In this document: in pieces, positions 7,418 through 60,110 of the stretch
How positions within the stretch are numbered: the first letter of the stretch is position 1
How the letters are laid out: the number at the start of each line of letters is the position of its first letter
Source: Clostridia bacterium
GTDB taxonomy: Bacteria > Bacillota > DAOUPZ01
Direction of reading: 5' to 3'
Assembly (NCBI GenBank): GCA_030625885.1
Contig: DAOUPZ010000011.1
Span: 27,353 to 91,352 of the forward strand
DNA: 64,000 nt
Program-made: the position numbers and the translations under genes
Notes under the pieces: model-generated
The model's database searches: none
The model's input: the letters and a program-made list of their open reading frames with translations, nothing else
What the model was told of the DNA's origin: nothing

Positions 7418-9208
7418 ATGGATCTAATGCAAGAATTGGAGCGTACGCATCATTGTGCGCAGTTAACTAAAGAAGATGTTGGCAAAGAAGTCATACTCAC
7501 GGGTTGGGTACAAAAAAGAAGAGATCATGGGGGACTTATTTTTGCTGATTTGCGAGATCGTTCGGGATTAGTTCAGGTTGTTTTTAGTCCGGAAGTGGAT
7601 CAAGCTGCTTTTGAAAAAGCAGAAAGTGTACGCAGTGAGTTCGTTTTAGGAATTGTTGGAAAAGTTGACTTAAGGCCCGAAGGTACGGTTAATCCTAATT
7701 TAGCGAGTGGAGAGATTGAAGTTTATGCTCATGAACTACGGATATTGAATAAATCTAAGACACCGCCTTTCTATATTACGGACGATGTTGATGTGGATGA
7801 GATGCTGCGTTTGAAATATCGGTATTTAGATTTACGCCGTCCTGTTATGCAGCAAAATATGATTTTGCGTCATCGCGTTACCAAGATTGTACGTGACTTT
7901 TTAGATGGAAGAGACTTTTTGGAAATCGAAACACCGATGCTTACAAAGAGTACACCGGAAGGCGCAAGAGATTATTTGGTACCGAGCCGAGTTAATGCCG
8001 GAAAGTTTTTTGCCTTGCCACAGTCACCACAGATTTTTAAACAGTTGCTGATGGTTGCAGGTATGGAACGGTACTTCCAAATTGTTCGTTGTTTCCGTGA
8101 TGAGGATTTACGTGCTGATCGTCAGCCTGAATTTACGCAAATTGACTTGGAAATGTCTTTTGTCAATCAAGATCAAATTCTTTCCATGATGGAAGAAATG
8201 ATGGCTAAGATATTTAAAGAAACCATTGGGGTGGAGGTTCCATTGCCACTGCCACGTTTGACTTATAAAGAAGCGATGGATCGCTTTGGTTCTGATCGGC
8301 CAGATTTGCGTTTTGGATTGGAACTTATTGATGTAGCTGATGTCATAGAAAATGTTGAATTTAAGGTCTTTAGTTCTGTTTTAAAATCAGGGGGTCAAGT
8401 CAAAGGGATTAATGCCAAAGGCTGTGGTGAAAAATTCAGTCGGCGTGAAATTGATGCCCTAACCAAATATGTGAATACGTATAGAGCAAAAGGGTTGGCC
8501 TGGATTGTGGTGGCGGAAGATGAAGTGAAATCACCTATTGCTAAATTCTTCAAACCTGAAGAAATGGAAGCCCTTAAAGAACGGATGGGTGCAGAGCCGG
8601 GCGATTTATTGTTATTTGTAGCGGATAAGCCTGCCGTTGTAGCAGATGCTTTAGGCCATCTGCGGTGCCATATTGCAGAAAAACTCGAATTAATTGATGA
8701 TCAAGTATTTAATTTTCTTTGGGTTATCGATTTCCCGATGTTTGAATATGATGAGGAAGCACAGCGTTATAACGCGATACATCATCCTTTTACAATGCCC
8801 AAGGAAGAAGATATTCATATGCTGGATTCAGAGCCGGGTCAGGTTCGCGCCAATGCGTATGATATGGTGTTAAATGGGGTAGAATTGGGTGGCGGTAGTC
8901 TTCGTATTTATCGTCGTGATATTCAGCAAAAAGTTTTTGAGACGTTAGGTTTATCACCGGAGGAAACAGAAGAGAAGTTTGGATTTATGTTAGAAGCATT
9001 TGAATATGGGGCGCCGCCGCATGGTGGATTAGCTTTTGGCTTAGATCGTGTGATTATGCTTTTGGCGGGCAAGGATTCTATTCGTGACGTCATTGCTTTT
9101 CCGAAAACCCAGAGTGCTTCTTGCATGATGACAGAAGCACCATCAGAAGTAGCCCCCGTGCAATTGAAAGATCTGCATATTAAATTAGACATTACAGAAG
9201 ATAAGTAA
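7418..9208 (+). CDS. aspS: Aspartate--tRNA ligase
   Basis: [43 protein letters not shown]. Confidence 0.98.
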
Positions 9209-9261: not shown

Positions 9262-9576
9262 CTATAATGATCTCTTATTATTCTGTCTCTTTATGTGTTT
9301 GGTAATATTGGCCTGCTCAATTAAATCATGAAGGAAATTTGAACCGCGCGATATGATGACACCTGTTGCTATAAAATCAATAAGGGGATAAGTAATATTA
9401 AAGCCTAAAGTAGAAAGTAATCCTGCTTTGGTAGAAATGGCAAGCAGTATTCCAACTAGAATGGCGACCAGGCTTTTTCTGGAACGGGTAACGATTTTGG
9501 GGAAAGAACTTTTGAAAATATTGGTGATTTCTTCCGTCAGTAAAGTCAAGATTGCCAGCGATGAAAAACTAATCAT
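9262..9576 (-). CDS. Small membrane protein, holin-like hypothetical
   Basis: Three hydrophobic segments, TGVIISRGSNFLHDLI motif, basic C-terminus; RBS AGGAAGGTG. Confidence 0.55.
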   Translation of the reverse strand: MISFSSLAILTLLTEEITNIFKSSFPKIVTRSRKSLVAILVGILLAISTKAGLLSTLGFNITYPLIDFIATGVIISRGSNFLHDLIEQANITKHIKRQNNKRSL

Positions 9577-9832: not shown

Positions 9833-9851
9833 TTTTACAGAAAGAGGAATA

Positions 9852-10029
9852 AATCCCTACTTTGTTCGTGCAAAGTCGATATCGTTTTGAGCTAACACTT
9901 TTACATGGGAGCCTGGACTCTGTTTGTGTCGTATAAGCCCTTTATGAGGGGACATACATAGCTGGCAGGAGGGCGCCAATCTGCTCGTTGAGCAGTTCAA
10001 AACGCTCGACCTACGGCAATAGTGGGGCT
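9852..10029 (+). ncRNA. ssrS: 6S RNA
   Basis: About 180-nt self-complementary rod (ccctact...tagtgggg, gttttgagc/gttcaaaac, gtcga/tcgac) with GGGAGC...GAGGGCGCC motifs; downstream of aspS as in Bacillus bsrA synteny; followed by a T tract. Confidence 0.85.
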
Positions 10030-10072
10030 TTTTTTAATTCATAATTCACAATTATTAATTCATAATTAAAAG

Positions 10073-10213
10073 GGCTCAACACCAAACTCTGTTGTTGACA
10101 AGTCAGTTTTAATATAATCGAGCCTCATAGGGTTTTATTACGGCTATTTTATTGTCTATATGTACGATTTTAGATTCTGAATTCATGTCAACAACATGTT
10201 TTGCTGAAGAGCC
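10073..10213. mobile_element. MITE-like element (~141 bp) with TIRs and 8-bp target-site duplication
   Basis: GGCTC...TGTTGTTGACA / TGTCAACAACA...GAGCC inverted ends; ATTAAAAG on both flanks (10065-10072 and 10214-10221). Confidence 0.75.
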
Positions 10214-10245
10214 ATTAAAAGATTGAAGAAACTTTATATATGTAA

Positions 10246-10371
10246 CGCAATAAAGAACTTACATTGCAATTTTGCACGAAAAGCGAAGGAAAGATGGGGA
10301 CATTCCACGAGGCACGAGTGGTGTGTCCCCATGTTGCCAGAGCCATTGTAAATGTAAAAACTTTAATGTGA
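10246..10371. repeat. Palindromic ~125-bp repeat family A, copy 1
   Basis: GCAATAAAG...GATGGGGACA-TTCCACGAGGCACGAGTGGTG-TGTCCCCATG...CTTTAATG; similar copies at 52240 and 60484. Confidence 0.85.
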
Positions 10372-10506
10372 TTTATAGGAGGATGCATTAAATATTTTTC
10401 ATTGATTTTATTATCAGGGGAAAGTTGGAAGTAAAAGATTAAGGAATTATATTATAGAATGTCTTACTATTCCTTTCATATATTTAATGCGCTTCATATA
10501 GGTTAA

Positions 10507-10535
10507 TTGACAAGTATAAATAGGTATGATATCAT
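10507..10535 (+). promoter_or_regulatory. SigA promoter for the rseC-like gene
   Basis: TTGACA-17-TATCAT with extended TG. Confidence 0.55.
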
Positions 10536-10689
10536 CAATCTGTAATAATTTCCGATAATATTGGTTGGGATTTACTGTTATTGCAGAATATAAAACCAGT
10601 ATATTTTTTTAATTTGCTTTACGCAGTAAAGCTACAATAATTAATAATTGTGAATTATGAATTGTGAATTGAAAAAGGGGGGGAAGTAT

Positions 10690-11136
10690 ATGGAGCAATA
10701 CGGAAAAGTCATTGAAGTAAAGGATCACTCAGCGCGGGTTGAATTTATTCGCCATTCTGCTTGAGCGCATTGCGGCGCTTGTGGTATGGGACATACCCAC
10801 GAAGATCAGATGATAGAAGTAGATGCGCGAAATTTAGTTAATGCAGAATCAGGAGACAGGGTGAAACTGGAAATATCTGCAAGAAGTGTGCTTATGGCTT
10901 CATTTATTGTATACGTTGTGCCCTTGATTGGTTTGTTTTTAGGTTATTATGTATTTAGCGGGATGGCCAAAATAATAGGCTACGCGGCGCGGGCTGATGC
11001 CATAGGGGGCGTTGCAGGGGTAACTATATTGGTACTTTCCTTTTTAATTGCGCGGTGGTATGATCGTAAATTAACTAATGAGCAACGATTTCATTTAGAA
11101 ATAACGAGAATAGTCGATCCAGCTGATATTTATTAA
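10690..11136 (+). CDS. RseC/MucC (SoxR-reducing system) family membrane protein, putative selenoprotein (UGA=Sec at codon 25)
   Basis: RBS GGGGGGGAAG then ATG 10690; MEQYGKVIEV...IRHSA-U-AHCGACGMG in frame with ORF 10786; TGA 10762-10764 sits at the first Cys of the family C-x2-C-x2-C motif; GDRV, YVVPLIG and two TM helices. Confidence 0.8.
10781..10800 (+). promoter_or_regulatory. Candidate bacterial SECIS hairpin
   Basis: GT-GGTATG-GGA-CATACC-C-AC; G-containing apical loop about 25 nt after the TGA. Confidence 0.6.
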
Positions 11137-11158
11137 GACGAGGCCTGCCTCGTCTTTT
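11135..11158 (+). terminator. Intrinsic terminator
   Basis: aagacgaggc-ct-gcctcgtctttt. Confidence 0.65.
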
Positions 11159-11196
11159 GTATATAACAAGTAAAAATACATAATGGAGGCTGTTTT

Positions 11197-12471
11197 ATGA
11201 AACCTTTAGCAGAGCGAATTAGACCGAAACAATTAGAAGATGTCGTGGGTCAAACACACCTATTGGGTGAGAATAAAATTTTAAATCGAATGATTACATC
11301 CGGAAGGATTTCTAATATGATTTTTTATGGTCCGCCGGGAACCGGAAAGACCACAGCGGCTAACATTATAGCACAAAAGACAGATAAGAAATTTTATAAA
11401 CTGAATGCAACAAATGCTTCGGTGCACGACATTCAATCCATTATAAAAGATTTGGATAGTTTGCTTGCAGTCAATGGGGTATTGTTATATTTAGATGAGA
11501 TGCAAAACTTTAATAAAAAGCAGCAGCAATCGTTGTTGGAGTTTACGGAAAACGGAAAAATCACTTTGATTGCCAGCACCACTGAGAATCCTTATCATTA
11601 TATTTACAAGGCGATATTAAGCCGCTCCACGATATTTGAATTTAAGCTGCTCCAAAAGAGTGAGATCAGAGTTGGATTAGAACGAGCCATTCAGATGGCG
11701 CAGGAAGACTTTCCGGATTCGAAGATAAGATATGATGGTCAGGTGCTTGACTATATTGCTGAGGTGAGCAATGGGGATTTGCGAAAAGCCATTAATGCGC
11801 TTGAACTTGCAATCTATTCAACGAATCTGGATATAAATGGCGATTTATTGATCACACTGGAGACGGCGCAGGAATGTACCCAGAAGAAAGTATTAAATTA
11901 TGATCAATCAGGGGACAGCCATTACGATATTTTAAGTGCATTTCAAAAATCCATCAGAGGCAGTGATCCCGATGCAGCGCTGCATTATTTGGCGCGCCTT
12001 ATTAAGGCCGATGATTTAATTTCCATTTGCCGGCGCTTATTGGTCATGGCTTCAGAAGATATCGGAATGGCCTATCCGAATGCCATATCTATTGTAAAAA
12101 GCTGCGTGGATGCGGCGATGCAGCTGGGGTTTCCGGAAGCCCGAATACCGCTGGCACAAGCGGTTATTACACTGGCTACCGCACCAAAATCCAATTCGGC
12201 GATGACGGCCATTGATGCGGCTTTGAGAGATATAGAGACAAAAAACATCGGCGATATTCCGGTGCATCTGAAGGATGCGCATTATGCGGGTGCTAAAAAG
12301 ATGGGACGGGGTGTGACCTATAAATACCCGCACGCTTATCAAAATAATTATGTTAAGCAGCAATATTTGCCGGATACGATCAAAGATGCAACTTATTATG
12401 TAGCAGGGAAAAATACGATGGAAGATAAGATAGAGAAGTTTATGGATATACTGAAAAATGAGAGAAGTTGA
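11197..12471 (+). CDS. rarA: Replication-associated recombination protein A (MgsA AAA+ ATPase)
   Basis: PLAERIRP, GPPGTGKT, STTENP, SAFQKSIRGSDPDAA, YKYPHAY. Confidence 0.93.
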   Translation: MKPLAERIRPKQLEDVVGQTHLLGENKILNRMITSGRISNMIFYGPPGTGKTTAANIIAQKTDKKFYKLNATNASVHDIQSIIKDLDSLLAVNGVLLYLDEMQNFNKKQQQSLLEFTENGKITLIASTTENPYHYIYKAILSRSTIFEFKLLQKSEIRVGLERAIQMAQEDFPDSKIRYDGQVLDYIAEVSNGDLRKAINALELAIYSTNLDINGDLLITLETAQECTQKKVLNYDQSGDSHYDILSAFQKSIRGSDPDAALHYLARLIKADDLISICRRLLVMASEDIGMAYPNAISIVKSCVDAAMQLGFPEARIPLAQAVITLATAPKSNSAMTAIDAALRDIETKNIGDIPVHLKDAHYAGAKKMGRGVTYKYPHAYQNNYVKQQYLPDTIKDATYYVAGKNTMEDKIEKFMDILKNERS

Positions 12472-14345: not shown

Positions 14346-15533
14346 ATGAAGCGGATTTATTTAGACCATAATGCCACAACACCATTAGATCCAGAAGCAT
14401 TAAAAGTGATGATGCCGTATCTGACAGAAGAATTTGGCAATGCTTCTTCGATTTACGAAAAAGGACGGGTGACCAAAAAGGCAATTGCTGAAGCCCGTGA
14501 AAAAGTGGCGCGGTTGATTGGCGCGCAAAGTGATGAAGTGTTTTTTACCGGCGGGGGAACGGAAGCGGATAACTGGGCGATTAAAGGCGCAGCAGAATCC
14601 TTGCGTGATAAAGGGAACCATATTATTACGACCGTTATTGAGCATCATGCTGTTTTGCATACCTGTGAATATCTGAAGGAGCATGGATTTGAAGTGACCT
14701 ATCTGCCGGTTGATGAATATGGGTTGGTAGATCCCGAAGCAGTCAAACAAGCGATAACCGATCAGACCATTCTCGTTTCGGTGATGTATGCCAATAATGA
14801 GATTGGCACGATTGAGCCGGTGGCGGAAATCGGCAAAATTGTGAAAGAAAAAAACATTCTTTATCATATTGATGCGGTACAAGCTGTTGGTAAAATTCCG
14901 GTCGATGTGAATGCGATTGGTGTTGATTTATTATCCATGTCAGCCCATAAATTATACGGACCCAAAGGAGTCGGCGCGCTATACATCCGCAAGGGAACCC
15001 AGATTAAGAATCTGATACATGGTGGGGCACAGGAGAGAATGCGCCGTGCTGGGACAGAAAATGTGGCGGGTATTGTAGGATTTGGAAAAGCCGCAGAATT
15101 AGCATTTGATCATTTATCAGAAACGGAAGAGCGGTTAACCCAATTGCGGGATAAGCTCCTTAACGGGATGATGGAAAAAATGGATCATGTGCGTCTTAAT
15201 GGTCATCCGATTCATCGTTTACCGGGAAATGTGAATGTCAGTATTGAATTCATTGAAGGTGAATCACTTTTGATTAGTTTGGATATGAAGGGGATTTCCG
15301 CTTCCAGTGGTTCTGCTTGTACATCGGGTTCATTAGATCCTTCTCACGTCCTTCTGGCAATCGGCTTGCCGCATGAAATTGCGCATGGCTCTTTAAGAGT
15401 CACACTGGGAAAAGAAAATACAGAAGCAGATGTGGATTATTTATTGGACATATTGCCGGAGATTGTACAGAAATTACGTGCCATGTCACCGCTTTATGAA
15501 GCCTATTTAAAAGGAGAGGGTAATCGTGTATAG
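14346..15533 (+). CDS. iscS: Cysteine desulfurase, copy 1
   Basis: YLDHNATT, SAHKLYGPKG (PLP Lys), SSGSACTSGS (group I catalytic Cys). Confidence 0.96.
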   Translation: MKRIYLDHNATTPLDPEALKVMMPYLTEEFGNASSIYEKGRVTKKAIAEAREKVARLIGAQSDEVFFTGGGTEADNWAIKGAAESLRDKGNHIITTVIEHHAVLHTCEYLKEHGFEVTYLPVDEYGLVDPEAVKQAITDQTILVSVMYANNEIGTIEPVAEIGKIVKEKNILYHIDAVQAVGKIPVDVNAIGVDLLSMSAHKLYGPKGVGALYIRKGTQIKNLIHGGAQERMRRAGTENVAGIVGFGKAAELAFDHLSETEERLTQLRDKLLNGMMEKMDHVRLNGHPIHRLPGNVNVSIEFIEGESLLISLDMKGISASSGSACTSGSLDPSHVLLAIGLPHEIAHGSLRVTLGKENTEADVDYLLDILPEIVQKLRAMSPLYEAYLKGEGNRV

Positions 15534-15897
15534 TGAGAAAGTAATGGATCATTTCAGTCATCCGCGTAATGTCGGGCAAATTGAAAACGCTGACGGGACA
15601 GGCCAGGTAGGGAATGCCAAATGCGGGGATATTATGAAAATTGATTTAAAAATAGAGGATGATCATATTGTCGATGTTAAATTTAAAACATTTGGTTGTG
15701 GCGCAGCGGTAGCGACAAGCAGCATGGTTACGGAAATGGTAAAAGGAAAAACGATCGAAGCAGCATTAGCAATTTCCAATAAAGCGGTCGCTGAAGCATT
15801 GGGTGGATTGCCGCCGCAAAAAATGCATTGTTCAAATTTAGCCGCTGATGCATTACATGAAGCGATTAAGGATTATCAGAAAAAGCAGGCGCAATAA
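15526..15897 (+). CDS. iscU: Fe-S cluster scaffold IscU/NifU, copy 1
   Basis: HPRNVG, CGD, FGCGAA, KMHCS; GTG start overlaps iscS. Confidence 0.95.
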   Translation: MYSEKVMDHFSHPRNVGQIENADGTGQVGNAKCGDIMKIDLKIEDDHIVDVKFKTFGCGAAVATSSMVTEMVKGKTIEAALAISNKAVAEALGGLPPQKMHCSNLAADALHEAIKDYQKKQAQ

Positions 15898-15905
15898 GAA
15901 GATGA

Positions 15906-15951
15906 AATAAAGAAAACTTTAGATTGTACAATCTAAGGTTTTCTTTATTTA
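15906..15951 (+). terminator. Hairpin/terminator between the two iscS-iscU units
   Basis: aaataaagaaaactttagattg-ta-caatctaaggttttctttattt. Confidence 0.65.
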
Positions 15952-15955
15952 TTGA

Positions 15956-15984
15956 TTGACATTTAGCGTAATTAATAGTATGTT
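15956..15984 (+). promoter_or_regulatory. SigA promoter for the second iscS unit
   Basis: TTGACA-17-TATGTT. Confidence 0.5.
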
Positions 15985-16044
15985 AAGCCTATAAAAACAC
16001 TCGGAAATGAAATTATTTACATATATCAATAGGGAGGAATCAAT

Positions 16045-17202
16045 ATGAAACGGATTTATTTAGATCATAATGCGACGACGTCATTAGATCCAGAGGTTTT
16101 AAAAGCGATGATGCCGTATCTGACAGGGGAATTTGGTAATGCTTCTTCAATTTATGAATGTGGGCGTATGGCCCAAAAGGCGGTTGTCGAAGCCCGTGAA
16201 AAAGTGGCGCGGTTGATTGGCGCGCAAAGTGATGAGCTGTTTTTTACCAGCGGGGGAACGGAAGCGGATAACTGGGCGCTTAAAGGCGCTGCAGAGGCTC
16301 TACGCGATAAGGGAAATCATATCATTACAACCGTTATTGAGCATCATGCTGTTTTGCATACCTGTGAATATTTGGAGGAACAGGGGTTTGAAGTAACCTA
16401 CTTGCCGGTTGATGAATATGGCCTGGTAGATCCCGCAGCAGTAGAGCAAGCGATAACGGATCAGACCATTATTGTTTCCGTGATGTATGCTAATAATGAG
16501 ATTGGCACGATTGAGCCTGTAGAGGAAATCGGCAAGATTGTCAAGGAGAAAGGTATCCTTTATCACATTGATGCGGTACAGGCTGTCGGGAAAATACCAG
16601 TCGATGTGAATGCGATCGGGGTTGATTTATTATCCATGTCAGCCCATAAATTATACGGACCCAAAGGGGTCGGGGCTTTATACATTCGTAAGGGAGTGAA
16701 AATTAATAACCTACTGCATGGTGGGGCCCAAGAGAGAAATCAGCGCGCCGGGACAGAAAACGTGGCCGGTATTGTGGGTTTTGGTAAAGCAGCGGAATTA
16801 TCATGTGATAATTTGATAGAAACGGCGGAAAGATTAACCCGGTTGGGGGACAGGCTTGCTAAAGGGATTACGGAAAAAATGGATCATGTACGATTTAATG
16901 GCTATCCGCTTCATCGGCTGCCAGGTCATGTGAATGTCAGTATTGAATTTGTGGAAGGGGAAGCGCTTGTAATGAGCCTGGATATGCAAGGAATTTCTGT
17001 TTCCAGTGGTTCAGCTTGTGCCGCCGGTTCAGCGGATCCTTCTCATGTACTGCTGGCGATCGGTTTACCGCATGAGATTGCGCATGGTTCTCTGAGGATG
17101 ACTTTGGGAAAAGATAGTACAGAAGCAGATGTGGATGAGGTACTGACTATCTTACCCCGTATTGTGGAGAAATTACGGGCTATGTCACCACTTTATCAAT
17201 AA
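16045..17202 (+). CDS. iscS: Cysteine desulfurase, copy 2
   Basis: Close paralog of 14346-15533; catalytic loop SSGSACAAGSADPSH. Confidence 0.95.
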   Translation: MKRIYLDHNATTSLDPEVLKAMMPYLTGEFGNASSIYECGRMAQKAVVEAREKVARLIGAQSDELFFTSGGTEADNWALKGAAEALRDKGNHIITTVIEHHAVLHTCEYLEEQGFEVTYLPVDEYGLVDPAAVEQAITDQTIIVSVMYANNEIGTIEPVEEIGKIVKEKGILYHIDAVQAVGKIPVDVNAIGVDLLSMSAHKLYGPKGVGALYIRKGVKINNLLHGGAQERNQRAGTENVAGIVGFGKAAELSCDNLIETAERLTRLGDRLAKGITEKMDHVRFNGYPLHRLPGHVNVSIEFVEGEALVMSLDMQGISVSSGSACAAGSADPSHVLLAIGLPHEIAHGSLRMTLGKDSTEADVDEVLTILPRIVEKLRAMSPLYQ

Positions 17203-52636: not shown

Positions 52637-52820
52637 AATTATTGAAGACATCCTTACAGGGTGACCGAAGAAGCAAGGAATAAGCTGAGCTAAAAGCTTG
52701 TTCTGAAACTTTCAGGTTTGGAACAATAATTGGACACACCTCTGGAGAGACTCCTTAAGTGGGGCATCGAAGAAGTAACTTACTTTTGTAAGGTAACTTT
52801 CAGATAAAAGGACAGGGGAT
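52637..52820 (+). ncRNA. Tandem glycine riboswitch
   Basis: Aptamer 1 GAAGAC...CCGAAGAAGCAA...GAAACTTTCAGG; linker GGAC; aptamer 2 CTCTGGAGAGACT...CATCGAAGAAGTAA...AACTTTCAGATAAAAGGACAGGGG; upstream of gcv genes. Confidence 0.9.
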
Positions 52821-52867
52821 AAAATAGCATCAAATGGTGTTGTGCTATTTTATCCCCTGTCCTTTTT
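52807..52867 (+). terminator. Riboswitch expression-platform terminator
   Basis: aaaaggacaggggataaaatagca...tgctattttatcccctgtccttttt; the 5' arm overlaps aptamer 2 P1, consistent with an ON switch. Confidence 0.8.
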
Positions 52868-52965: not shown

Positions 52966-53814
52966 ATGACAGCGAAGATCATAGATGGAAAAGCAGTAGC
53001 ACAAGATATTCGGGGCAAATTAAAACAGGAAATTGATCATATGATAAATGAACAGGGAATGACCCCGGGATTGGCAGTTGTTTTGGTTGGAAATAATCCG
53101 GCTTCGGAAGCTTATGTCAATATGAAAGCAAAAGCATGTCAAGAACTGGGGATGTATTCGGAAAAACATCACCTTGAAGCAGATACGACGGAGCAAGCAT
53201 TATTGGATTTAATTGAAAAGTTGAACGGCAAAGCAGATATTCATGGGATTTTGGTACAATTGCCTTTGCCAGAGCATATTGATACGACCAAGGTGATATT
53301 AACCATTGATCCAAAGAAAGATGTGGATGGTTTTCATCCGATCAATACGGGTAATTTTCATATCGGGATCGAATCTTTTATTCCCTGTACACCTTATGGG
53401 GTATTGAAATTGATTGAAACGACAGGCCTGGACATTGCCGGTAAAGATGTAACCGTTGTAGGGGCTAGTAACTTAGTAGGAAAACCAGCGGCAATGCTGA
53501 TGCTTCAGGAAGGTGCAACTGTGACGCTTTGCCATAAAATGACGCATGATTTAGCGTTGCATACCCAAAAAGCAGATATTTTAATTTTAGCCGCAGGCTG
53601 CCCGGGCCTTATAACAGCGGGCATGGTAAAAGAAGGTGCTTGTGTTATCGATGTCGGAACAACCAAAGTGGCAGGAAAGTTAAAAGGTGATGTTGATTTT
53701 GAAACGGTAAAGGAAAAGGCAGGATGGATTACGCCTGTTCCAGGCGGGGTAGGCCCCATGACCATTACTATGTTGCTTTACAATACCGTACAGGCAGTGA
53801 AACAAGCTACTTAA
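52966..53814 (+). CDS. folD: Methylene-THF dehydrogenase/cyclohydrolase
   Basis: IIDGK, YVNMK, VQLPLP, KDVDGFHP, PCTP, TPVPGGVGPMT. Confidence 0.97.
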   Translation: MTAKIIDGKAVAQDIRGKLKQEIDHMINEQGMTPGLAVVLVGNNPASEAYVNMKAKACQELGMYSEKHHLEADTTEQALLDLIEKLNGKADIHGILVQLPLPEHIDTTKVILTIDPKKDVDGFHPINTGNFHIGIESFIPCTPYGVLKLIETTGLDIAGKDVTVVGASNLVGKPAAMLMLQEGATVTLCHKMTHDLALHTQKADILILAAGCPGLITAGMVKEGACVIDVGTTKVAGKLKGDVDFETVKEKAGWITPVPGGVGPMTITMLLYNTVQAVKQAT

Positions 53815-54047
53815 CCGTTTCATTTTTTGCTAAAAATTTTATGTATGTATGGGTTGCAAAGTATATAGGAAAAATTAGAAACCAAAGAAATGATTTAACG
53901 ATGTTTTACATATTTTTAATGATAGAATGCTTTAATGGATTTGATTAAAAAACCAATCATATTTTATAAATTATTTGGGAACGATAGGTGATGAGGTTTT
54001 TTTATAAATTTTTTTAAATTATAAAAAATGAAAGGAGGAATTATTTT

Positions 54048-55172
54048 ATGGCAGAGCTTAAGAAAACATCTCTTTATGAGGCACATGAGAGATATGGCGG
54101 TAACATAGTTGATTTTGCCGGTTGGGCCCTTTCTGTAGAATTTGAAGGATTAACAGAAGAACATGAAGCTGTAAGAAAAGCAGCAGGATTATTTGATGTT
54201 TCACATATGGGAGAAGTGGAGGTAAAAGGCAGCCAGGCATTTGACTTTGTGCAAAATTTGATAACCAATGATGCGTCTGTTCTTGAAGACAATCAGGTTC
54301 TTTATACGCTGATGTGCTATCCTCATGGTGGTGTAGTTGATGATTTATTGGTCTATAAGTTTGCAAAAGATGATATATTATTAGTCATTAATGCGAGTAA
54401 TATTGAAAAAGATTACGAATGGATGAAAAAAAATATTGGGGACTATGATGTTAAGCTGACTAATGTTTCCGATAACGTTTCTCAAATTGCATTACAAGGT
54501 CCAGCAGCTCAAAAAATATTACAAAAGCTGGCGGATACGGATCTTTCTGATATAGGGTTTTTCCGTTGTAAGAGAGATGTTAATGTAGGCGGTGCAAAAT
54601 GTTTGGTTTCCAGAACAGGCTATACCGGGGAAGATGGGTTTGAAATCTATTTAGAGAATGGAGATGCGACAGCGGTATGGGATAAGGTGATGGAGGCAGG
54701 AAAGGAACACGGGATTAAACCGGTTGGCCTTGGTGCTAGAGATACATTGCGATTTGAAGCGGCATTGCCCCTTTATGGCAATGAATTATCGGAAGATATC
54801 ACACCTTTGGAAGCAGGACTCGGTTTCTTTGTAAAACTTGACAAACCTAATTTTATTGGGAAAGAAGTGCTGGTTAAACAGAAGCAAGAGGGATTAAAAA
54901 GAAAGATTGTTGGTTTTGAAATGGAAGGTAAAGGGATACCTCGACATGGATATGATGTTTTTGCAGATGGAAAGCAAATTGGTTTTGTTACGACGGGATA
55001 TTATTCACCTTCATTAAAGAAGAATATCGGCTTGGCCATGGTGGATATTGAATATTCTACTCTTGAAACGCCTATTGAGATTAAGGTGCGGAAAAGAAAT
55101 GTCAAAGCCAGGGTGATTAGTAAAAAATTCTATACGAAGAACTATAATAAAAATACAAAAACAAAAAAATAG
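54048..55172 (+). CDS. gcvT: Glycine cleavage aminomethyltransferase T
   Basis: FDVSHMGE, ALQGP, SRTGYTGEDGFE, GLGARDTLRFEA. Confidence 0.97.
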   Translation: MAELKKTSLYEAHERYGGNIVDFAGWALSVEFEGLTEEHEAVRKAAGLFDVSHMGEVEVKGSQAFDFVQNLITNDASVLEDNQVLYTLMCYPHGGVVDDLLVYKFAKDDILLVINASNIEKDYEWMKKNIGDYDVKLTNVSDNVSQIALQGPAAQKILQKLADTDLSDIGFFRCKRDVNVGGAKCLVSRTGYTGEDGFEIYLENGDATAVWDKVMEAGKEHGIKPVGLGARDTLRFEAALPLYGNELSEDITPLEAGLGFFVKLDKPNFIGKEVLVKQKQEGLKRKIVGFEMEGKGIPRHGYDVFADGKQIGFVTTGYYSPSLKKNIGLAMVDIEYSTLETPIEIKVRKRNVKARVISKKFYTKNYNKNTKTKK

Positions 55173-55182
55173 CTTAGGAGGA

Positions 55183-55587
55183 ATGAAAATGAATATCATA
55201 CAAGGGCTTTATTACACGAAGGATCATGACTGGGTTAAAGTAGAAGGAGAAAAGGCATACATTGGTATTACACAATATGCAGAAAACAAATTGGGCAAAA
55301 TTGTTTATGTTGAATTGCCGGAAATCGATGATGAGTTTGCAGCAAGTGAAGACTATGCTGTTATTGAATCTGTTAAGGCAGCAACTGATTGTCATATGCC
55401 TATTACCGGAAAAGTAGTAGAAGTCAATGAAGAGGTTGTTGACGAGCCCGAACTGCTTAATGCAGATCCGTTTAAGAACTGGATGATTGCGATAGAAATT
55501 TCTGATCAATCTGATCTTGAAAGCTTAATGGATTCAAAACAATACGAAGATTTATGCAATGAATTATGTTCAAAATGTAAAGGTTAA
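55183..55587 (+). CDS. gcvH: Glycine cleavage H protein with Cys-rich C-terminal tail
   Basis: [19 protein letters not shown] (lipoyl Lys); tail CNELCSKC; start may be ATG 55189. Confidence 0.95.
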
Positions 55588-55601
55588 GGAGGCATAATAA
55601 T

Positions 55602-56945
55602 ATGCACAGGTATATACCGACTACCAAGGCCGATGAAGCGCAAATGCTGGGAAGCATGGGCGTAAAATCGATTGATGACCTATTTAAAGATATACCACAG
55701 GGACTTCGTATGAAAAAAGATCTTAATCTGGGTGAACCGTTATCAGAGACAGAACTTTCTAAGCATATGAAGACGCTATGTGATAAAAATAAGAGTACCG
55801 AGGATTTAGTTTGTTTTCTAGGTGCGGGTGCATATGATCACTATATCCCCTCTGTACTCAAGCATATCACAGGAAGATCAGAATTTTATACCGCCTATAC
55901 GCCTTATCAACCGGAAATTAGTCAAGGAACGCTTCAAGTTATTTTCGAGTATCAAACCATGCTGAGTGATTTAACGGGCATGGACGTATCGAATGCGTCT
56001 ATGTATGATGGTGCCACAGCTTGTGTGGAAGCGGCGATCATGGCCACTGAGAGTACAAGAAAAAAATCAATCGTTGTTTCTAAAGCCGTTCATCCGGAAA
56101 CAAGAAAGGTTCTGCAAACTTACTTGAAATTTAGAGATATTGAACTGGTTGAAATTGATATAGAAGACGGCGTTACGGATCTTGAAAAGTTAAAAGCTGC
56201 GGTGGGTAAAGATACGGGTGGTGTCATTATCCAAAACCCGAACTTCTTTGGAAACCTTGAAGATTTAGAAGAAGTAGAGAAGATGACACACGAAACTAAA
56301 GCAAAATTTATCACAATTGCGGATCCAATTTCTTTGGGAATATTAAAAAGTCCGGGAGAATTAGGGGCAGATATCGTGGTAGGAGAAGGTCAATCCCTTG
56401 GAAATCATTTGAACTTCGGCGGACCCTATCTGGGGTTTATGGCTACCACTTCAAAACTCGTACGAAAAATGCCGGGAAGAATTGTCGGTCAATCAGTAGA
56501 TGATGATGGCAAACGTGCATTTGTACTGACACTGCAGGCAAGAGAACAGCATATTCGAAGGTATAAAGCGACGTCTAATATTTGTTCTAATCAGGGATTA
56601 ATTGCCTTAAACGCAGCTGCTTATCTTATAACCATGGGAAAACAAGGGTTAAAAGAAGTGGCAACACAAAGCTTACAGAAAGCGCATTATGCTTTTAATA
56701 AAATTACGGAAAGTGGTAAATATAAACCGCTGTTTAATCAGCCATTCTTTAAAGAATTTGCCGTACAGAGTGATGTTGAAACTAAAACAGTCAATGCGGA
56801 ACTCATGAAACACCATATTCTTGGCGGCTATGAACTGGGTAAAGACTATGAAGCATATAAGAACGGTTTATTGCTTTGTGTCACAGAAAAAAGAACAAAA
56901 GAAGAAATCGACCAGTTAGCCAGTGCGATGGAGGTGGTCAAGTGA
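55602..56945 (+). CDS. gcvPA: Glycine dehydrogenase subunit 1
   Basis: [37 protein letters not shown]. Confidence 0.97.
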
Positions 56946-58396
56946 AGACATACGATCAATTAATATTTGAGATTTCTAAAGAAGGACGAAAAGCATACGA
57001 CCTTCCTAAACTTGATGTAGAAGAAGCTAAAATAGATGATATGCTGCCGGGCAAATTTCTAAAAGAAAATGATCTTGAATTGCCGGAAGTGAGTGAATTG
57101 GATGTTATGAGACACTTCACGCTTTTATCCAATAAGAATTTCGGTGTGGATACGGGTTTTTACCCGCTGGGCTCTTGTACCATGAAATACAATCCTAAGA
57201 TCAATGAAGATATGGCATCACTTAGCGGTCTTGCGGCACTTCATCCTTATCAGCCGGAAGAGACGGCACAAGGCTCGCTGCAAATGATGTATGAATTGGA
57301 TCATATGTTAGCGGAAATAGCAGGTATGGAAAGGGCGACCCTTCAACCCGCTGCCGGTGCACATGGGGAATTGACGGGACTATTTATTATCAAGGCGTAT
57401 CATGAAAGCAGGAACGATACGAAGCGGAAAAAGATCATTGTGCCTGATTCCGCTCACGGGACGAATCCCTCTAGTGCAGCGGTTGCCGGATTTGATATTG
57501 TGGAAGTTCAATCAGATGAAAATGGTGCAGTTGATATTGAAAGCCTTAAATCTGTTCTGAATGATGAAATTGCTGGTTTAATGCTGACCAATCCGAGTAC
57601 GCTGGGTCTTTTTGAGGAAAATATAAAAATGATTGCTGATTTGGTTCATGAAGCAGGCGGACTTTTATATTATGACGGCGCGAATATGAATGCCATTATG
57701 GGCATTGCCAGACCGGGAGATATGGGATTTGACGTGATGCATTATAATTTGCACAAGACGTTTGCATCGCCTCACGGCGGCGGCGGACCAGGCAGCGGTC
57801 CGGTTGGCGTAAGAAAAGACCTGGTTCAGTTTCTTCCCGTACCCGTTATTGAGAAAAAAGGCGATCAATATATTTTGGATTATGATCGACCCTCCTCTAT
57901 TGGTAAAATTAAAAGCTTTTATGGTAACTATGGCGTGATGATTCGATCTTATGCGTATATCCTGACGATGGGTGCCGCAGGACTGAAGAAAGCCAGTGAA
58001 ATGGCAGTGCTTAATGCCAATTATATGATGAATCGACTTAAGAAATATTATTATCTTCCGATTGATCAAGTTTGTAAGCATGAATTTGTTTTAGGCGGGC
58101 TTGGAAAAGGTCATTCAGAAGTAAGTACGCTTGATGTAGCTAAAAGATTACTGGACTATGGTTATCATCCCCCAACAATTTATTTCCCATTGATCATTGA
58201 TGAAGCGATGATGGTGGAGCCGACAGAAACTGAGAGTATAGAAGCAATGGATGCTTTTATAGACACCATGATAAAAATATCAGAAGAAGCTGCTAAAGAG
58301 CCGGAAACTTTAAAACATGCACCTTATAATACACCCGTTAGAAGAATTGATGAAGTCAAGGCAGCTAAAGATTTGATTTTAAAATGGACGAAGTAA
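56942..58396 (+). CDS. gcvPB: Glycine dehydrogenase subunit 2
   Basis: [35 protein letters not shown]; GTG 56942 overlaps the gcvPA stop. Confidence 0.97.
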
Positions 58397-58439
58397 TCAT
58401 GAAATGGGCTGACTAAATAAATTTAAAGGAGAATGATCT

Positions 58440-60110
58440 ATGAAAACAGATGTGCAGATAGCGCAAGAAGCTAAAATGATTCCCATTGTAGATGTAGCTA
58501 AGAAACTTGGTATTAAAGAAGATGATTTAGAGCTCTATGGAAAATATAAAGCGAAAATATCATTAGATGTCTATAAAGAACTAGAAGGTAAAGAAGATGG
58601 GAAGCTCATATTAGTAACGGCGATCAACCCAACGCCAGCAGGAGAAGGAAAGACCACAACCAATGTTGGGCTAAGTATGGGCTTAAACGAGATCGGTAAA
58701 AAGGCCATTACAACATTAAGAGAACCCTCATTAGGACCTTGTTTTGGGGTAAAAGGTGGCGCTGCAGGCGGTGGGTATGCACAGGTTGTCCCTATGGACG
58801 ATATCAACCTCCACTTTACAGGCGATATTCATGCAATTACAACAGCCAATAATCTCCTGGCAGCATTACTTGACAATCATTTGCATCAAGGAAATGCTCT
58901 AAATATTGATCCCAAAAGAATTACTTGGCGAAGAGCCCTTGACATGAACGATCGAGTCTTAAGAGATATTGCGATTGGCTTGGGAGCCAAAGGGAATGGT
59001 GTTTCTAGACCCGATGGTTTTGACATATCCGTGGCATCTGAAATTATGGCTATTATGTGTTTGGCAACCAGCATGACCGATTTGAAAGAAAGACTTTCAA
59101 GAATGATTATCGGTTATACCTACCAGAACACACCCGTAACAGCAGGGGAACTGGATGCAACCGGTGCTTTAGCATTGTTGCTTAAAGATGCCATCAAACC
59201 AAATTTGGTTCAGACATTGGAAAACACGCCAGCCATTATCCACGGCGGTCCATTTGCAAATATTGCTCATGGTTGTAACTCTGTTATGGCGACTAAAACA
59301 GCACTAAAGATAGCAGACTATGTCGTAACGGAAGCCGGTTTCGGTGCCGATCTGGGTGCAGAAAAGTTCTTCAATATCAAGTGTCGGTATGCCGGATTGA
59401 AACCAAGTGCCGTGGTTATTGTTGCAACGGTAAGAGCGCTTAAGAACCATGGTGGTGTTCCAAAGGCGGATTTATCTCAAGAAAATATGCAAGCACTATC
59501 TGATGGATTTGAAAACTTGGAAAAGCAAATTGAAAACGTACAAAAATTTGGTGTACCGGCCGTGGTGGCAATTAATGCCTTCCCAACCGATACCAAAAAA
59601 GAACTTCAATTCTTAGAAGATAAATGTAATGAGCTTGGCGTGAACGTGGTACTATCTGAAGTTTGGGCTAAAGGCGGCAAAGGCGGCAGTAAACTGGCTA
59701 AAAAAGTCGTAGAGATTGTAGAAAAGGGCCAAGCTGACTTTAAGCCCCTTTATGATCTGGATATGTCAATCAAAGACAAAATACAAACCATAGCCAAAGA
59801 AATCTACGGTGCAGATGGTGTGGAATTCAGCGGTAAAGCTCTAAAAGAAATTACTAAATATGAGGAAATTGGGCTAGGCAACCTTCCGGTATGTATGGCT
59901 AAAACACAATATTCCCTATCTGATAATCCGAAACTTTTGGGTAGACCAAAAGGATTTAAAGTTACTGTGAGTGCGGTACGAGCATCAGCAGGTGCTGGAT
60001 TCTTGGTTGCATTGACTGGAGATGTCATGACCATGCCCGGGCTGCCAAAAGTTCCAGCGGCCAATAAGATGGATATTTTGGACAATGGCGAGATTATCGG
60101 TTTATTCTAA
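58440..60110 (+). CDS. fhs: Formate--tetrahydrofolate ligase
   Basis: [52 protein letters not shown]. Confidence 0.98.

Follow-up and report, generated by a model that had tools for sequence, protein, structure and literature searches.

An in-frame TGA in an RseC/MucC-family gene of a Clostridia bacterium very probably encodes selenocysteine

The RseC/MucC-family gene at positions 10690 to 11136 of the window (the whole stretch of 64,000 nucleotides that was analyzed) very probably encodes a full-length selenoprotein of 148 residues, in which the UGA at codon 25 would be read as selenocysteine (Sec). An earlier note, made from the letters of this DNA alone, had proposed an RseC/MucC protein containing Sec, and that proposal is supported by the cysteine found opposite the TGA in homologs, by the Sec machinery of the genome, by a SECIS-like hairpin and by the recurrence of the TGA in other genomes. 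The features of the gene are as follows.

About 10675 to 10683, plus strand: Shine-Dalgarno-like sequence AAGGGGGGG, purine- and G-rich, 6 nt before the ATG at 10690, read directly from the sequence.
10690 to 11136, plus strand: gene of the RseC/MucC family, 148 codons long, with one TGA in frame and a TAA stop at 11134 to 11136.
10762 to 10764, plus strand: the TGA, codon 25 (putative U25), at the first position of a U-x2-C-x2-C motif (U25, C28, C31).
10779 to 10802, plus strand: candidate SECIS hairpin, a 10-bp stem (6+4) with one bulged C, -8.3 kcal/mol.
10786 to 11136, plus strand: 116-aa ORF reported by gene callers (P0002), a truncated annotation of the same gene, starting MGHTHEDQM.
11135 to 11160, plus strand: intrinsic-terminator-like hairpin with a U run, a 9-bp stem and a CCUG loop, overlapping the stop codon.

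The earlier note had described a ribosome binding site and ATG at 10690, a family-type N-terminus (GKVIEV...ARVEFIRHSA) and a TGA at 10762 followed in frame by AHCGACG and the rest of the protein, and all of these were borne out. The Shine-Dalgarno-like sequence ends six nucleotides upstream of the ATG, the expected string is present in the translated 10690 frame, whose N-terminus is MEQYGKVIEVKDHSARVEFIRHSA, and from AHCGACG onward the frame is open to the TAA. The internal ATG at 10786 is preceded by no purine run comparable to the Shine-Dalgarno sequence of the ATG at 10690. The terminator-like hairpin has a folding energy of -13.3 kcal/mol when computed on the 30 nt from the TAA onward. 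The note had also suspected that the gene would be annotated as truncated, and the protein database indeed holds it only as the 116-aa P0002.

The read-through product (P0001) matched the Pfam family PF04246 (RseC_MucC) with 109.1 bits against a cut-off of 24.4. This match extends over residues 7-140 and over profile positions 1-130 of 130, and homology therefore continues across the TGA. Against the NCBIfam model NF008115, the equivalog model of the SoxR-reducing system protein RseC, the product scored 47.2 bits, below the cut-off of 184; we therefore regard it as a member of the RseC family and not as an equivalog of E. coli RseC. The AlphaFold model of the 148-residue product (mean pLDDT 90.8, with the motif loop as its least confident part) has an OB-like beta-barrel with strands at residues 2-11, 14-20, 41-48 and 57-62, closed by a C-terminal strand at 136-141, and two long helices (64-95 and 99-130) after the barrel, so that two transmembrane helices are predicted to follow the N-terminal domain, as the family expects. 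Foldseek comparison of the model with the PDB gave only weak OB-fold matches (S17 and IF1, E about 0.01), and a profile search of PDB sequences returned nothing relevant.

Pairing of the TGA with cysteine in orthologs, which the Sec reading predicts, was found without exception. In an alignment of the 26 best same-phylum homologs, all 26 carry Cys at the TGA column, and this Cys opens a C-x2-C-x2-C motif. A second alignment combined the window's protein and another Sec form with 77 representatives from the database, and each of the 77 has Cys at column 25. Columns 25, 28 and 31 are invariant cysteines in the family, and the window's gene has TGA, Cys and Cys at these places. Among 60 other genomes of the phylum, 30 had a homolog, and the homologs of those 30 genomes contained no internal TGA, with one of them having a TAA. 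A larger phylum sample contained the RseC family in 177 of 401 genomes, and among the 150 RseC matches listed for these 401 genomes (there were 39 more matches) a TGA or other stop occurred only in the window's gene, which makes the Sec form rare in the sample of its own phylum. The window's genome (G000) is the sole member of its class in the genome set. A metagenome scan with P0001 gave a single match, a Cys homolog (L045) with 39% identity.

A search of 1.84 billion representatives returned 3232 representative clusters at E <= 0.001. The nearest relative in that set, P0003, is 85% identical over the 116 residues and was also called as a 116-aa ORF from the same Met (MGHTHEDQM). Among the best 150 of the 3232 matches, an N-terminal truncation of this kind was seen only in P0003 and in P0109. 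From the truncated call of P0003 alone we infer that the TGA and the hairpin would be conserved in the window's own lineage.

The Sec machinery without which the proposal could not stand is encoded in the genome, whose assembly is 98% complete in 39 contigs. SelA is present (557 bits), the SelB gene adjoins tRNA-Sec, the tRNA-Sec itself scored 68.1 bits against a cut-off of 47 and was assigned the anticodon tca by ARAGORN, and SelD contains a TGA of its own (Sec-type). In this genome fdhA and grdA contain a TGA too, and there are three full grdB copies, in which the frames run on past a TGA within U-GT-C-TR-C, again a U-x2-C-x2-C arrangement. Outside the window, on contig C20, selenium-related genes lie within 20 kb of each other at about 44.9-64.8 kb:

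44889: selA.
47285: Sec-type selD.
51523: Sec-type fdhA.
62399: grdB.
64352: Sec-type grdA.

Two further contigs (C15 and C16, positions 1-867 of each) both start with grdB fragments, scoring 476.4 and 476.2 bits, which probably represent paralogs so similar that the assembly broke at them.

The stem-loop that had been noticed about 25 nt downstream of the TGA is present. Its core, GGTATG-GGA-CATACC, occupies positions 10783-10797, and the GGA apical loop (10789-10791) begins 24 nt past the TGA. In the published model of bacterial SECIS elements, the loop measures 3-9 nt and has a G in its first two positions, the upper stem has 4-16 bp, the spacing from UGA to loop is 16-37 nt and the minimum free energy is -7.5 kcal/mol or lower; a subset of genuine SECIS elements falls outside the model (PMC13188914). 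We applied these limits through a simple script of our own, rather than bSECISearch or deep-Sep, and the hairpin at 10779-10802 lies within all of them. As a background, 4.2% of 5994 random TGA triplets in the genome pass the same hairpin test, and the 69-nt fold downstream of the TGA has a z score of -0.97; the hairpin is therefore supportive, and not decisive by itself. Taken together with the alignment of TGA to Cys, it is far beyond chance. The same script gave -9.0 kcal/mol for fdhA of this genome and -10.2, -6.8 and -4.6 kcal/mol for its grdB copies. The loops of fdhA and the three grdB genes are GUC, GGU, GGA and GGU at a spacing of 18-19 nt, compared with 24 nt for RseC, and the GGA triloop, like that of the RseC hairpin, belongs to the grdB copy on contig C20.

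TGA forms were also found in Peptostreptococcaceae and in the order to which they belong. The DNA of P0109 (L060, contig CAYFHQ010000058.1 of an uncultured Peptostreptococcaceae MAG) reads MNRSGIVLSKANDRALVRLLKHTA-TGA-GDCGACQLG..., with the TGA again on the first Cys. When 77 Peptostreptococcaceae genomes were scanned, 72 had a match and six of these had an internal TGA, which stands in the first-Cys column in all six (G401-G404, G466 and G464). A sample of the order comprised 111 genomes, 93 of them with a match, and nine further places were flagged as having one TGA. In two of the nine (L103 and L104, genomes G556 and G518) the TGA is on the first Cys, and four (L105-L108, in G514, G481, G492 and G534) have another arrangement, C-G-TGA-AQKS-C-SH-C. 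The remaining three, L100-L102, were rejected as TGA forms, as their Cys motif is intact and the stop that was counted falls at the gene end or beyond. The four genes with C-G-TGA represent a second RseC subfamily, with the frames intact on both sides of the TGA in four genomes; no SECIS of the model type was found in them, and a conserved CUUGC...GCAAG stem is found 13-36 nt after the TGA instead. SelA was detected in 11 of the 12 other TGA-bearing genomes, the search for it being negative in G534, and no tRNA-Sec above the cut-off was found in G401.

Codon differences were counted on either side of the TGA in three closely related TGA forms (L095, L096 and L097), all of which keep the TGA. 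Synonymous to nonsynonymous differences number 10:4, 9:4 and 5:0 in the part ahead of it and 36:12, 40:12 and 9:4 in the part behind it. An excess of synonymous changes on both sides indicates that both halves are translated in one frame. In these other lineages, coding constraint and a conserved UGA at the same column are thus found together, the column being shared by eight genomes. The earlier note had expected the hairpin to be kept in TGA-bearing orthologs, and this held in part. In the first set of seven genes with TGA on the first Cys, a model-passing hairpin follows the TGA in six, whereas only 4 of 57 Cys forms have one at the corresponding codon. The exception among the seven (L066, -6.0 kcal/mol) and all six of the later TGA forms (L103-L108) failed in our simple script. 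From L095 to L098 the second stem pair changes, being U-A in the former and A-U in the latter. In a quick tree, the window's protein and P0003 pair with an SH-aLRT value of 99, apart from a Peptostreptococcaceae clade supported at 96, within which Sec and Cys forms are intermixed. On the sequences in this quick tree, at least two changes between the Sec and Cys states appear to be forced by well-supported branches.

These data bear on whether the gene is a pseudogene, or produces only the 116-residue C-terminal part from the ATG at 10786, a TGY-to-TGA nonsense change having destroyed the N-terminal domain. A single base change does turn a Cys codon into TGA, and gene callers report the 116-aa ORF only, both here and in the 85% identical P0003. 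We nevertheless consider such a decay quite improbable, as the 24 codons before the TGA keep their start, a strong Shine-Dalgarno sequence and their fit to the family profile, whereas the ATG at 10786 lacks a Shine-Dalgarno sequence. The stop also falls exactly on an invariant Cys, with a SECIS-type hairpin behind it, in a genome rich in selenoproteins, and the same TGA is retained in no fewer than eight further genomes from several lineages, with a synonymous excess on both sides, which independent pseudogenes would not show.

A translated TGA might instead be read through with a residue other than Sec, either by near-cognate insertion of Trp or Cys or following a lineage-wide reassignment of TGA, and the inserted residue cannot be told from DNA alone. 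TGA terminates 5 of the 35 long open frames in the window; it has therefore not been reassigned genome-wide and is still a working stop. Homologs always carry Cys at this position, the residue that Sec usually pairs with, and the genome has the full Sec machinery and the SECIS-type hairpin, so that read-through of another kind seems very unlikely. That the TGA is an error of assembly or sequencing, the true codon being TGC or TGT, is scarcely credible: the assembly is metagenome-derived and in 39 contigs, and the only run containing the gene, X1, is probably the source sample of this assembly, but the Logan contig of that run (4100 nt, depth 23.8, from an independent assembler) reproduces the TGA and covers 10420-11400 with 0 differences, P0003, which comes from a different data set, has its truncation at the same point, and the TGA is not unique to this assembly, as other genomes have it at the same column. 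No RNA run was listed as containing the stretch, which weighs neither for nor against the Sec reading.

For the Sec reading, a mechanism may be outlined as follows. SelB, loaded with Sec-tRNA(Sec), would attach to the hairpin at 10779-10802, and Sec would be inserted at the UGA in place of termination. The product would have an N-terminal OB-like barrel bearing U25-x2-C28-x2-C31, followed by two transmembrane helices, and by analogy with E. coli RseC the barrel is predicted to be cytoplasmic. Of the three cysteines invariant in the family, Sec would thus replace the first. By analogy, Sec25 would most likely serve as a ligand to an Fe-S cluster or a metal, because the three conserved cysteines of E. 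coli RseC, a distant homolog, can hold an oxygen-sensitive Fe-S cluster (PMC11729352). Less likely, Sec25 may be a reactive selenenyl-sulfide partner of C28 that tunes a membrane-anchored redox module. Sec insertion, the topology and a physiological partner, which in this genome would not be Rnf, are what we infer for this RseC.

Genes surrounding the RseC gene in the window are listed below.

7418 to 9208: aspS, upstream of the RseC gene.
9851 to 10032, plus strand: 6S/SsrS RNA (81.7 bits), directly before a repeat-filled spacer.
11197 to 12471: rarA/mgsA, downstream of the RseC gene.
14346 to 17202: genes for a cysteine desulfurase, a nifU-like protein and a second desulfurase.

The iscS and nifU genes are 3.2 kb from the RseC gene, beyond rarA and a gene on the opposite strand. 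At 29 loci of Cys-type homologs in the phylum, rarA lies downstream in four (L017, L023, L026 and L037), aspS is close in three (L033, L034 and L041), ThiF is upstream in four and rnfC adjoins in three (L028, L039 and L040), and others lie beside hydrogenase-type or NfnAB-type genes. The two Sec forms whose surroundings were examined, L060 and L095, directly follow aspS, and aspS also precedes the window's gene. Since the order aspS...rseC-rarA is shared among homologs, we read the Fe-S assembly genes as syntenic neighbors, not partners. The location of the gene near Fe-S assembly genes, as described in the earlier note, stands, while a functional link between RseC and iscS-nifU was rejected as unsupported, the proximity looking like conserved housekeeping synteny. 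At one locus (L031, genome G009), selB is directly followed by the gene for an RseC homolog of the Cys type.

The 660-nt spacer between the 6S RNA and the RseC gene (10030-10690) consists of repeats that are dispersed through the genome. An AT-rich element of about 40 nt at 10030-10072 has 26 other matches on 15 contigs, and an inverted copy of it at 10638-10680 has 30 matches; the two include a perfect 25-nt inverted repeat (10036-10060 and 10639-10663). An element of about 140 nt (10237-10377) has 43 matches of at least 100 nt on 24 contigs with 76-94% identity and a fold of -45.7 kcal/mol, and a third element (10385-10475) has 23 matches. Short repeat pieces also match contigs of the runs X1-X3, with X2 and X3 covering only the vicinity of 10420-10475 and 10638-10682 and not the gene. 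Between aspS and the 6S RNA, a 104-aa ORF on the minus strand (9262-9576) has no Pfam match and is suspected from its translation to be hydrophobic. Elsewhere in the window, a glycine riboswitch aptamer (52732-52825, plus strand, 54 bits) precedes plus-strand ORFs at 52966-60110, which, as a guess from their sizes and order, may form a glycine-cleavage-type operon.

RseC had been expected to act with Rsx/Rnf, and here the expectation failed. Searches of the 98% complete genome for RnfA/E (PF02508) and RnfD (PF03116) gave 0 matches, while the controls matched in 4 of 14 reference genomes, and with neither homolog found an Rnf/Rsx partnership in the window's organism is unlikely. That a genome lacking Rnf retains RseC, at the cost of a Sec codon, argues against RseC as a mere Rnf accessory. 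Elsewhere such associations have been described: E. coli RseC has been linked to SoxR reduction (PMC11729352), and rseC of Clostridium ljungdahlii to the RNF complex and autotrophy. It is tempting to generalize, and we do so only tentatively, that RseC/MucC proteins may make up a selenoprotein family that is not yet catalogued and originated several times among strictly anaerobic Firmicutes-type bacteria, with at least two Sec positions (U-x2-C-x2-C and C-G-U-x4-C-x2-C). Se would then directly ligate or gate the oxygen-sensitive Fe-S cluster of an electron-transfer module that is anchored in the membrane and works without Rnf/Rsx here. If the module does work without them, RseC would have a function of its own, broader than that of an 'Rnf accessory' or a 'sigma-E regulator'.

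As to novelty, no entry for RseC/MucC or PF04246 exists among the 119 prokaryotic selenoprotein families and subfamilies in Table 1 of a 2026 review (PMC13188914). Neither RseC nor MucC, SoxR or sigma occurs in the main text of deep-Sep, BSepDB, the ISME J 2016 survey, the 2022 Biomolecules review or the Haft 2022 preprint, and the BSepDB supplement, which seems to carry no family names, contains no RseC-family words in its first 4 million characters. A full-text literature search that combined RseC/MucC with selenoprotein or selenocysteine, its scope excluding the BSepDB database and RefSeq annotations, returned only chemical 'RSeC' strings or unrelated co-mentions. RseC thus looks like a selenoprotein family that the current catalogue lacks, new but of the common type in which Sec replaces Cys, and the prokaryotic selenoproteome would grow by one family. 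According to the review, the majority of selenoproteins whose homology can be assigned are similar to thiol oxidoreductases or contain redox motifs (PMC13188914), which fits an electron-transfer role for RseC. RseC is widespread, with its 3232 representative clusters, and its function is poorly understood; a natural exchange of Sec for Cys would mark residue 25 as chemically critical and would offer spectroscopy an intrinsic Se probe of the cluster. A systematic error of annotation also comes to light, with the gene being stored as a 116-aa fragment here and in two unrelated data sets.

Among known systems, E. coli RseC shares with the window's protein the same Pfam family, PF04246, and an N-terminal three-Cys domain followed by two transmembrane helices (PMC11729352), but its motif is C-x5-C-x2-C-x5-C, as opposed to U-x2-C-x2-C here, where the first conserved Cys is encoded by TGA (putative Sec). 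The genomic settings differ as well, since no Rsx/Rnf genes were found in the window's genome, and the window's gene does not belong to an rpoE-rseABC operon but stands alone between the 6S RNA with its repeats and rarA. Cys-type RseC-like proteins of Clostridia and their relatives resemble the window's protein in length, architecture, C-x2-C-x2-C spacing and their aspS/rarA neighborhoods; they differ in having Cys for Sec and in that 3 of 29 lie beside rnfC, whereas the window's genome is without Rnf. With known Sec-for-Cys selenoproteins the window's gene shares a putative Sec within a conserved Cys cluster, a dominance of Cys homologs and a hairpin 3' of the UGA, and GrdB of the same genome has the matching U-GT-C-TR-C spacing, a likeness of motif spacing and not of homology. 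What sets the protein apart from known selenoproteins is its fold and family, an OB-like barrel with two predicted transmembrane helices.
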